From the NCBI RefSeq assembly GCF_003018235.1, contig NZ_CP027437.1: a stretch of 64,000 nucleotides of DNA; one strand, given 5' to 3'. How positions within the stretch are numbered: position 1 is the first letter of the stretch; each line of letters starts with the position of its first letter. Positions 24 through 3,284 of the stretch are shown in pieces. The stretch is from Escherichia coli. GTDB lineage: Bacteria; Pseudomonadota; Gammaproteobacteria; Enterobacterales; Enterobacteriaceae. The translations under genes and the position numbers were made by a program. The notes under the pieces are model-generated. The model was not told the origin of the DNA. It ran no database searches and saw only the letters and a list, made by a program, of their open reading frames with translations.

Positions 24-959
24 ATGGCTAATCCGCTATATCAGAAACATATCATTTCCATAAACGACCTTAGTCGCGATGACCTTAATCTGGTGCTGGC
101 GACAGCGGCGAAACTGAAAGCAAACCCGCAACCAGAGCTGTTGAAGCACAAAGTCATTGCCAGCTGTTTCTTCGAAGCTTCTACCCGTACCCGCCTCTCT
201 TTCGAAACTTCCATGCACCGCCTGGGTGCCAGCGTGGTGGGCTTCTCCGACAGCGCCAATACATCACTGGGTAAAAAGGGCGAAACGCTGGCCGATACCA
301 TTTCGGTTATCAGCACTTACGTCGATGCGATAGTGATGCGTCATCCGCAGGAAGGTGCGGCGCGCCTGGCCACCGAATTTTCCGGCAATGTACCGGTACT
401 GAATGCCGGTGATGGCTCCAACCAACATCCGACGCAAACCTTGCTGGACTTATTCACCATTCAGGAAACCCAGGGGCGTCTGGACAATCTCCACGTCGCA
501 ATGGTTGGTGACCTGAAATATGGCCGCACCGTTCACTCCCTGACTCAGGCGTTAGCGAAGTTCGACGGCAACCGTTTTTACTTCATCGCGCCGGACGCGT
601 TGGCAATGCCGCAATACATCCTTGATATGCTCGATGAAAAAGGGATCGCCTGGAGTCTGCACAGCTCTATTGAAGAAGTGATGGCGGAAGTAGACATCCT
701 GTACATGACTCGCGTGCAAAAAGAGCGTCTGGACCCGTCCGAGTACGCCAACGTGAAAGCGCAGTTTGTTCTTCGCGCCAGCGATCTCCACAACGCCAAA
801 GCCAATATGAAAGTGCTGCATCCGCTGCCGCGTGTTGATGAGATTGCCACCGATGTTGATAAAACGCCGCACGCCTGGTACTTCCAGCAGGCAGGCAACG
901 GGATTTTCGCTCGCCAGGCGTTACTGGCACTGGTTCTGAATCGCGATCTGGTACTGTAA
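24..959 (+). CDS. pyrB: aspartate carbamoyltransferase catalytic subunit
   Basis: 311-aa ORF; carbamoyl-phosphate binding motif STRTR and HPLPR motif visible in translation; followed 12 bp later by pyrI. Confidence 0.95.
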
Positions 960-971
960 GGGGAAATAGAG

Positions 972-1433
972 ATGACACACGATAATAAATTGCAGGTTGA
1001 AGCTATTAAACGCGGCACGGTAATTGACCATATCCCCGCCCAGATCGGTTTTAAGCTGTTGAGTTTGTTCAAGCTGACCGAAACGGATCAGCGCATCACC
1101 ATTGGTCTGAACCTGCCTTCTGGCGAGATGGGCCGCAAAGATCTGATCAAAATCGAAAATACCTTTTTGAGTGAAGATCAAGTAGACCAACTGGCATTGT
1201 ATGCACCGCAAGCCACGGTTAACCGTATCGACAACTATGAAGTGGTGGGTAAATCGCGCCCAAGTCTGCCGGAGCGCATCGACAATGTGCTGGTCTGCCC
1301 GAACAGCAACTGTATCAGCCATGCCGAACCGGTTTCATCCAGCTTTGCCGTGCGAAAACGCGCCAATGACATCGCGCTCAAATGCAAATACTGTGAAAAA
1401 GAGTTTTCTCATAATGTGGTGCTGGCCAATTAA
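972..1433 (+). CDS. pyrI: aspartate carbamoyltransferase regulatory subunit
   Basis: 153-aa ORF immediately downstream of pyrB; C-terminal zinc-binding cysteines (CPNSNC...CKYC) visible. Confidence 0.95.
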
Positions 1434-1450: not shown

Positions 1451-1482
1451 AGTCTGGCTCCCTATAATGAGCCAGACTTTTT
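1451..1482 (+). terminator. intrinsic terminator after pyrBI (10-bp stem AGTCTGGCTC/GAGCCAGACT, then T-run)
   Basis: Perfect inverted repeat 1451-1460 / 1469-1478 followed by TTTTT; read directly from sequence. Confidence 0.55.
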
Positions 1483-1505: not shown

Positions 1506-1892
1506 ATGAGCAAAACTATCGCGACGGAAAATGCACCGGCAGCTATCGGTCCTTACGTACAGGGCGTTGATCTGGGCAATATGATCATCACCTCCGGTCA
1601 GATCCCGGTAAATCCGAAAACGGGCGAAGTACCGGCAGACGTCGCTGCACAGGCACGTCAGTCGCTGGATAACGTAAAAGCGATCGTCGAAGCCGCAGGC
1701 CTGAAAGTGGGCGACATCGTTAAAACCACCGTGTTTGTGAAAGATCTGAACGACTTCGCAACCGTTAATGCTACCTACGAAGCCTTCTTCACCGAACACA
1801 ATGCCACCTTCCCGGCACGTTCTTGCGTTGAAGTTGCCCGTCTGCCGAAAGACGTGAAGATTGAGATCGAAGCGATCGCTGTTCGTCGCTAA
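1506..1892 (+). CDS. ridA: RidA (YjgF) enamine/imine deaminase
   Basis: 128-aa product starting MSKTIATENAPAAIGPY; ORF track start 1434 is an upstream in-frame extension; RBS AGGAG before the ATG at 1506. Confidence 0.9.
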   Translation: MSKTIATENAPAAIGPYVQGVDLGNMIITSGQIPVNPKTGEVPADVAAQARQSLDNVKAIVEAAGLKVGDIVKTTVFVKDLNDFATVNATYEAFFTEHNATFPARSCVEVARLPKDVKIEIEAIAVRR

Positions 1893-1950: not shown

Positions 1951-3259
<1,309 letters not shown>

Positions 3260-3284
3260 GTGATTCCTGCAATTTATTGAATTT

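Follow-up and report, generated by a model that had tools for sequence, protein, structure and literature searches.

The spacer between pyrI and ridA of Escherichia coli was found to carry two signals on the same nucleotides. The likely explanation is that a constitutive sigma-70 promoter of ridA is nested in a leaky 3' hairpin of pyrBI, with the TATAAT hexamer of the promoter lying in the hairpin loop. The two overlapping signals would be read in different molecules, the promoter in DNA and the hairpin in RNA. The components are already known: an ordinary sigma-70 promoter (in RegulonDB, according to a flag in a published Table S2) and an ordinary operon-end stem-loop.

The window, i.e. the whole stretch of 64,000 nucleotides that was analysed (contig NZ_CP027437.1, assembly GCF_003018235.1), starts with pyrB-pyrI-ridA on the plus strand (1–1900), as identified from the list of open reading frames and the annotation of matching E. 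coli genomes. pyrB occupies 24–959 (+), and pyrI, for the regulatory subunit of aspartate carbamoyltransferase, occupies 972–1433 (+), with its TAA stop codon at 1431–1433. ridA (yjgF), for 2-iminobutanoate/2-iminopropanoate deaminase, spans 1506–1892 (+) with its ATG at 1506. The 72-bp spacer between pyrI and ridA (1434–1505) is 100% identical to that of E. coli K-12 MG1655, so that data obtained in K-12 apply directly to the window. MG1655 coordinates (U00096.3) equal 4472419 minus the window coordinate. A 78-bp segment with the spacer was identical in 5394 of 5424 complete E. coli genomes.

The hairpin consists of a 5' arm, AGTCTGGCTC (1451–1460), and a 3' arm, GAGCCAGACT (1469–1478), which form a perfect 10-bp inverted repeat, exactly as the sequence-only reading had it. 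Pairing of A1448–1450 with T1479–1481 extends the stem to 13 bp. The arms enclose the loop CCTATAAT (1461–1468), of which 1463–1468 is TATAAT. The earlier placement of this hexamer in the loop was correct, but the loop is 8 nt long, not the 9 nt of CCTATAATG; the latter was too long because G1469, the first base of the 3' arm, had been counted twice. The stem is followed by a run of five T (1478–1482), a candidate U-tract for pyrBI transcripts. The distance of 25 bp given earlier between this structure and the start of ridA needs correction: the hairpin with its T-run ends 23 nt upstream of the ATG, and the hexamer 37 nt upstream.

Folding of the core hairpin gave −20.1 kcal/mol (z −9.0), and none of 200 shuffled sequences folded as well. 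The whole spacer gave −31.2 kcal/mol (z −6.5). The stem is the longest perfect one with a loop of 3–10 nt in the 64-kb window, and its stability and G+C content are those expected of an intrinsic terminator. For any particular 8-nt loop, the chance of containing TATAAT is about 5e-4. The window has 16 TATAAT, counting both strands, and some 11 different perfect hairpins with stems of 9 bp or longer. The coincidence is unlikely within the window and unremarkable genome-wide. A search of Rfam with the hairpin and the lineage-specific insertions described below matched no family. A DNA cruciform at the palindrome was also considered and dropped; its arms are short, and nothing was found in its support.

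As a promoter, the same sequence reads as follows. The −35 hexamer TTGGTA (1440–1445; 4/6 matches to TTGACA) lies 17 bp, the optimal spacing, upstream of the −10 hexamer TATAAT (1463–1468), a perfect consensus. The 5' arm lies within the promoter spacer, and the 3' arm doubles as the discriminator and start region. The combined match is 10/12, which by itself is not significant: the window contained 4 such matches, against 8.5 ± 3 in shuffled sequences. Since the pattern is within chance, promoter function rests on the conservation of the hexamer and on a published start site. An extended −10 element was rejected for the loci with GTGTATAAT, in which the TG is one position out of the TGn register.

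The start site was taken from the literature, where it is listed in older coordinates. The offset from U00096.2 to U00096.3 was presumed to be +1977, a value that agrees with the difference in genome length. The same offset places the mgtA start site of the table in PMC4681348 about 264 nt before mgtA. In that study, Romero et al. (2014) applied dRNA-seq together with global RNA-seq to BW25113, with U00096.2 as the reference. Table S2 of the study contains the entry RVS_(I)-4468968 (4468967–4468968), of class I (TAP-enriched and at the leading edge of transcription), and marks it YES for overlap with RegulonDB. This single table entry, with its RegulonDB flag, places the ridA start on the minus strand of MG1655 at U00096.3 4470945/4470944, which is A1474/G1475 on the plus strand of the window. 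This is 6–7 nt past TATAAT and 31–32 nt ahead of the ATG, and agrees with the earlier prediction of a start about 7 bp past the hexamer. The promoter thus shows the features of the sigma-70 class: a −10 element near TATAAT, a −35 element within 16–18 bp, selectively conserved hexamers and, from Romero et al. (2014), a 5'-triphosphate end within 6–8 nt past the −10 element.

The leader of ridA is 31–32 nt long (1474–1505), with the Shine-Dalgarno sequence AAGGAG at 1495–1500, and the T5 run occupies positions +4/+5 to +8/+9 of the mRNA. Folding of 1474–1530, which represents the leader started from the promoter, gave −3.2 kcal/mol (z +1.6), indicating an unstructured RNA. With its start inside the 3' arm, the mRNA made from this promoter never carries the hairpin.

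To follow the hexamer across the family, 80 pyrI loci from different species of Enterobacteriaceae were collected. ridA follows pyrI in 76 of them. TATAAT was exact in 74 of the 76, and the other two, both from Atlantibacter, had TATACT. In every locus without extra sequence downstream of the hexamer, the distance to the ATG was 34–46 nt. The hexamer was kept where the upstream half of the spacer was unrelated (e.g. L007, L056, L062, L074, L077, L080 and L081), where an insertion of about 125 bp splits the loop just 5' of TATAAT (L012, L014, L016 and L042), and where the hairpin was lost.

Among 73 distinct anchored sequences, the hexamer and the following G formed seven consecutive positions of at least 0.97 conservation. 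As a neutral baseline, 60 four-fold degenerate sites of pyrI had a mean frequency of the commonest base of 0.70, and only 2 of the 60 reached 0.97. The TTGG of the −35 element was conserved in 82–93% of the 73 sequences. The information content was 1.8–2.0 bits per position in the hexamer, compared with at most 1.54 at the −35 element and at most 1.2 in the arms and the initial transcribed region.

These results bear on the alternative that TATAAT arose in the loop by chance and that all expression of ridA comes from pyrBI read-through. Consensus matches were not above the shuffled expectation in the window, and loops are free to be A+T-rich, as this alternative would have it. On the other hand, a primary start is published 6–7 nt downstream, and 74 of 76 loci keep the hexamer unchanged (neutral baseline 0.70), including loci that have lost the hairpin. 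We consider the chance origin extremely improbable. Expression of ridA by read-through alone, which would have counted against the sequence-only reading, is at odds with the published start at 1474/1475. That reading had embedded the ridA promoter in the upstream hairpin, and this part of it was borne out: the −10 element is the loop TATAAT, the −35 element is TTGGTA, the start is published and the hexamer is conserved in 74 of 76 loci.

Several lineages differed around the promoter. Several genomes of Citrobacter and relatives carry the insertion of about 125 bp (about 1990–2115 in the coordinates of those loci). GTGTATAATG is left in place, but the TTGGTA −35 element is no longer correctly spaced. 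The insert resembles a small palindromic repeat, presumably ERIC-like; in Rfam its only match was V_AS5, below threshold (27 bits; gathering score 96). In Klebsiella and Raoultella (L008, L025, L030, L051, L054, L055 and L063), 60–100 extra nt lie between the promoter and ridA. In Salmonella and some Citrobacter (L010, L033, L046 and L073), a new 10-bp hairpin, AGGCTGCATC/GATGCAGCCT, is present past the −10 element, inside the ridA leader. Neither the extra Klebsiella/Raoultella sequence nor the leader hairpin matched any Rfam entry.

The arms behaved differently from the hexamer. They varied at about the rate of the four-fold degenerate pyrI sites (commonest base 0.44–0.78), yet stayed complementary. 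The pairs found across genera included, besides AGTCTGGCTC/GAGCCAGACT, CCCGGCT/GGCCGGG, GCCTGCC/GGCAGGC, CCGCGCT/GGCGCGG, GTCCCGCTC/GGGCGGGAC and TCCCCC/GGGGGA. A palindromic protein operator around the −10 element was rejected on the same observation, that the arms differ in sequence between genera yet remain complementary.

RNAalifold on 47 spacers returned no consensus structure. This was attributed to a one-nucleotide shift of register between Escherichia and the other genera and to degraded stems in about 30% of the loci. Explicit counting of pairs and a permutation test with swapped arms were relied on instead. In an alignment of 54 sequences, 74.5% of the cells were paired in the native register, and 27–55% when the partner was slid. 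The covariation score was 0.26, against 0.16 in shuffles, none of 500 shuffles reached it, and double changes were found in 6 of 8 pairs. Native pairs of arms outdid swaps between species (permutation p < 2e-4).

By folding, a helix of at least 6 pairs around a fully unpaired hexamer was present in 54 of the 76 loci. The hairpin was lacking in about 30% of the loci, including those of Salmonella and Kluyvera, and the relatives of Escherichia represented by L003, L004 and L006 had uncompensated mismatches in the stem. Judged from these comparisons, the invariant part is the hexamer, and the hairpin is common, selected and dispensable.

The next question was the activity of the hairpin as a terminator of pyrBI, the role originally assigned to it. 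The stem-loop and the T-run are present as claimed, but efficient termination was not borne out, in view of the short T-run, the lack of a dominant 3' end and the co-repression of yjgF. Past the stem, E. coli has UUUU(U)ACCG. These 4–5 U compare with the norm for terminators of a U-rich stretch of about 7–9 nt, and some of them are taken up in A-U pairs. Outside Escherichia, only a few loci have the T-run; most genera lack it and have, for example, AACATTCT after the stem. A consensus terminator scan called no plus-strand terminator at the hairpin, probably because A-U pairing absorbs the T-run.

The Term-seq data of Adams et al. (2021) give some 1000 dominant 3' ends for each of three conditions, LB at OD 0.4, LB at OD 2.0 and M63. 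No dominant 3' end was listed in the pyrI-ridA spacer (MG1655 44709xx) in the three conditions, a weak negative from one dataset. Among these dominant ends, therefore, there was no mapped 3' end of the kind that identifies an intrinsic terminator. The 3' end of ridA itself was listed in all three conditions, at MG1655 4470490/1. This dominant end falls at a hairpin, AATCCGGGC/GCCCGGATT (1903–1929; −20.4 kcal/mol), with no T-run after the stem; the end may be processed or Rho-derived and protected by the stem.

On accumulation of UTP and CTP, yjgF was strongly down-regulated along with pyrB, pyrI, carA and upp (PMC3903281). This indicates substantial read-through, as the simplest explanation of the co-repression with pyrBI. 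Taking these results together, we regard the hairpin as a leaky terminator and/or the 3' hairpin of the pyrBI mRNA, and lean slightly towards a real termination activity.

Alternatively, the hairpin might not be a terminator but a structure that protects or processes the 3' end of the pyrBI mRNA, as an exonuclease stop or as an RNase III target in a 24-bp helix (1434–1492), with the T-run being incidental. This longer helix comes from a possible outer pairing of 1434–1446 with 1481–1492, which joins the −35 region to the conserved TTACCGCTGTAA of the ridA leader and would lengthen the stem of the read-through RNA to about 24 bp. Across 47 species, 77.6% of the cells of the outer helix were paired, in nearly invariant sequence with few compensatory changes. 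Because the paired positions are almost entirely invariant, the pairing is not demonstrated by this number. Most genera keep the stem without a U-tract, and the dominant 3' end of ridA lies at a hairpin that also lacks one, while none was called at the pyrI hairpin. These points fit a protecting structure. However, the E. coli stem with its U4–5 fits the pattern of an intrinsic terminator, and a protected end would be expected in Term-seq when pyrBI is expressed (M63), where none is listed. A purely protecting or processing role was therefore considered unlikely.

The palindrome could also serve mainly as a bidirectional terminator, stopping antisense transcription from the mgtA/ridA side before it reaches pyrI. 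The minus-strand hairpin (−25.2 kcal/mol) has UUUUAUUACC after its stem, and on the plus strand an A-tract precedes the stem; the minus strand reads the hairpin and then TTTTATTACC. Antisense transcripts do exist. In the Rho/bicyclomycin table of Adams et al., a Rho-dependent signal lies antisense to the 3' end of pyrI, at MG1655 4470998 (+), which is about 1421 on the minus strand of the window. But this signal is beyond the hairpin, so that the antisense transcripts cross the stem. Furthermore, the G.U pairs of the plus strand in other genera are C.A mismatches on the minus strand, and only Escherichia has the flanking runs of A and T. We regard a mainly bidirectional function as quite improbable.

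The arrangement that we favor, a ridA promoter nested in a leaky hairpin, would work as follows. On DNA, sigma-70 holoenzyme would read TTGGTA and the TATAAT encoded in the loop and start at A1474/G1475, giving expression of ridA independent of pyrimidine control. On RNA, only transcripts from the pyrBI promoters would contain both arms and form the stem-loop of 10–13 bp (−20 kcal/mol), followed by U4–5 in Escherichia. We infer that the stem-loop acts on this RNA as a partial, leaky intrinsic terminator and/or as a hairpin protecting the 3' end. Transcripts that read through would carry ridA, which would thereby follow pyrBI regulation. Nesting of the two signals would be possible because the constrained hexamers are unpaired, one upstream of the stem and the other in the loop, and the arms are made up of spacer and discriminator, which are under loose constraint. 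Termination activity, its extent, and the lack of any regulatory coupling other than ordinary polymerase traffic are presumed in this scheme, which otherwise builds on the hairpin, promoter elements, conservation and arm covariation observed above and on the published start site.

A tighter coupling had been proposed in the sequence-only reading, namely that the ridA promoter is occluded on read-through from pyrBI and exposed on termination, or the reverse. The promoter and the hairpin do overlap physically, the ridA mRNA does track pyrBI, and tandem units are well known to interfere with each other's transcription. However, a hairpin in RNA cannot hide a −10 element in DNA. The predicted release point, at about 1482–1486, is past the −10 element and +1, so that terminating and non-terminating polymerases would both cross the promoter, and any interference would depend on the upstream flux, not on the decision to terminate. 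Read-through mRNA also explains the co-regulation with pyrBI more simply. Such coupling was judged highly unlikely.

A more elaborate possibility is that the hairpin with the −10 element in its loop is a bifunctional module selected in Enterobacteriaceae, and not a by-product of compaction. On the read-through RNA, mostly without U-tract, it would be an element for processing, stability or tuning of translation, to which the T5 of Escherichia would add termination strength and UTP-sensitive initiation. If this were true, the hairpin would set the amount of RidA made under pyrimidine control versus constitutively. We give this idea only a small chance.

The UTP-sensitive part of this idea has known counterparts. 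The ridA promoter resembles those of pyrBI, carAB, upp and codBA in having a T5 early in the transcript and in belonging to a gene that tracks pyrimidines. It differs in that four non-U nucleotides precede the T5 and that the tract is not conserved outside Escherichia; read-through is the simpler explanation. The introduction of PMC12709180 places the T-tract of UTP-sensitive reiterative-initiation promoters within roughly the first 2–6 nt; ridA is not mentioned in the main text of that paper.

Compared with housekeeping sigma-70 promoters of the RegulonDB type, the ridA promoter is alike in its 17-bp spacing, its perfect TATAAT, the start 6–7 nt on and the G after the hexamer. Its only peculiarity is that spacer and discriminator are complementary to each other. 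Similarly, the hairpin resembles Rho-independent terminators of E. coli in its G+C-containing stem of 10–13 bp, its 8-nt loop, the T-run and the preceding A-run. It departs from them in its U-tract of 4–5 U only, which is absent from most of the orthologous hairpins, and in the leakiness implied by the co-regulation of ridA.

Shared boundaries of this kind are known in E. coli. The frd terminator/ampC attenuator and the rpsO terminator/pnp promoter each combine, in one intergenic region, the 3' hairpin of the upstream unit with the promoter of the next. In frd/ampC the hairpin comes after the promoter, so that it is part of the ampC transcripts and acts as an attenuator. The pyrI-ridA region is like both in sharing the boundary and in a downstream gene fed by its own and by read-through transcription. 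Unlike the ampC transcript, the ridA transcript starts inside the 3' arm and is without the hairpin. In a limited literature search, no paper was found that describes a start site inside the 3' arm of an upstream hairpin.

For the annotation of this locus, ridA possesses a promoter of its own, rather than being just the terminal gene of pyrLBI. Leakage past a weak 3' hairpin is the best reading of the response of ridA to pyrimidines. Beyond annotation, the matter is small. The arrangement suggests a candidate design rule for compact synthetic terminator-promoter junctions, with the hexamers unpaired and the spacer and discriminator as arms. It also calls for caution with predictors of terminators and promoters that treat the two signals as exclusive.

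Downstream of ridA, the similarity of the window to MG1655 stops directly after a REP-like palindrome (1951–1976). Between ridA and mgtA, the window contains a copy of IS621, which is absent from MG1655, at 1977–3260 (extent approximate). IS621 belongs to the IS110 family, which has a recombinase guided by a bridge RNA. The open reading frame at 2170–3150 (+) matches PDB entry 8wt6_A, 'IS621 transposase', with an E value of 3e-218.
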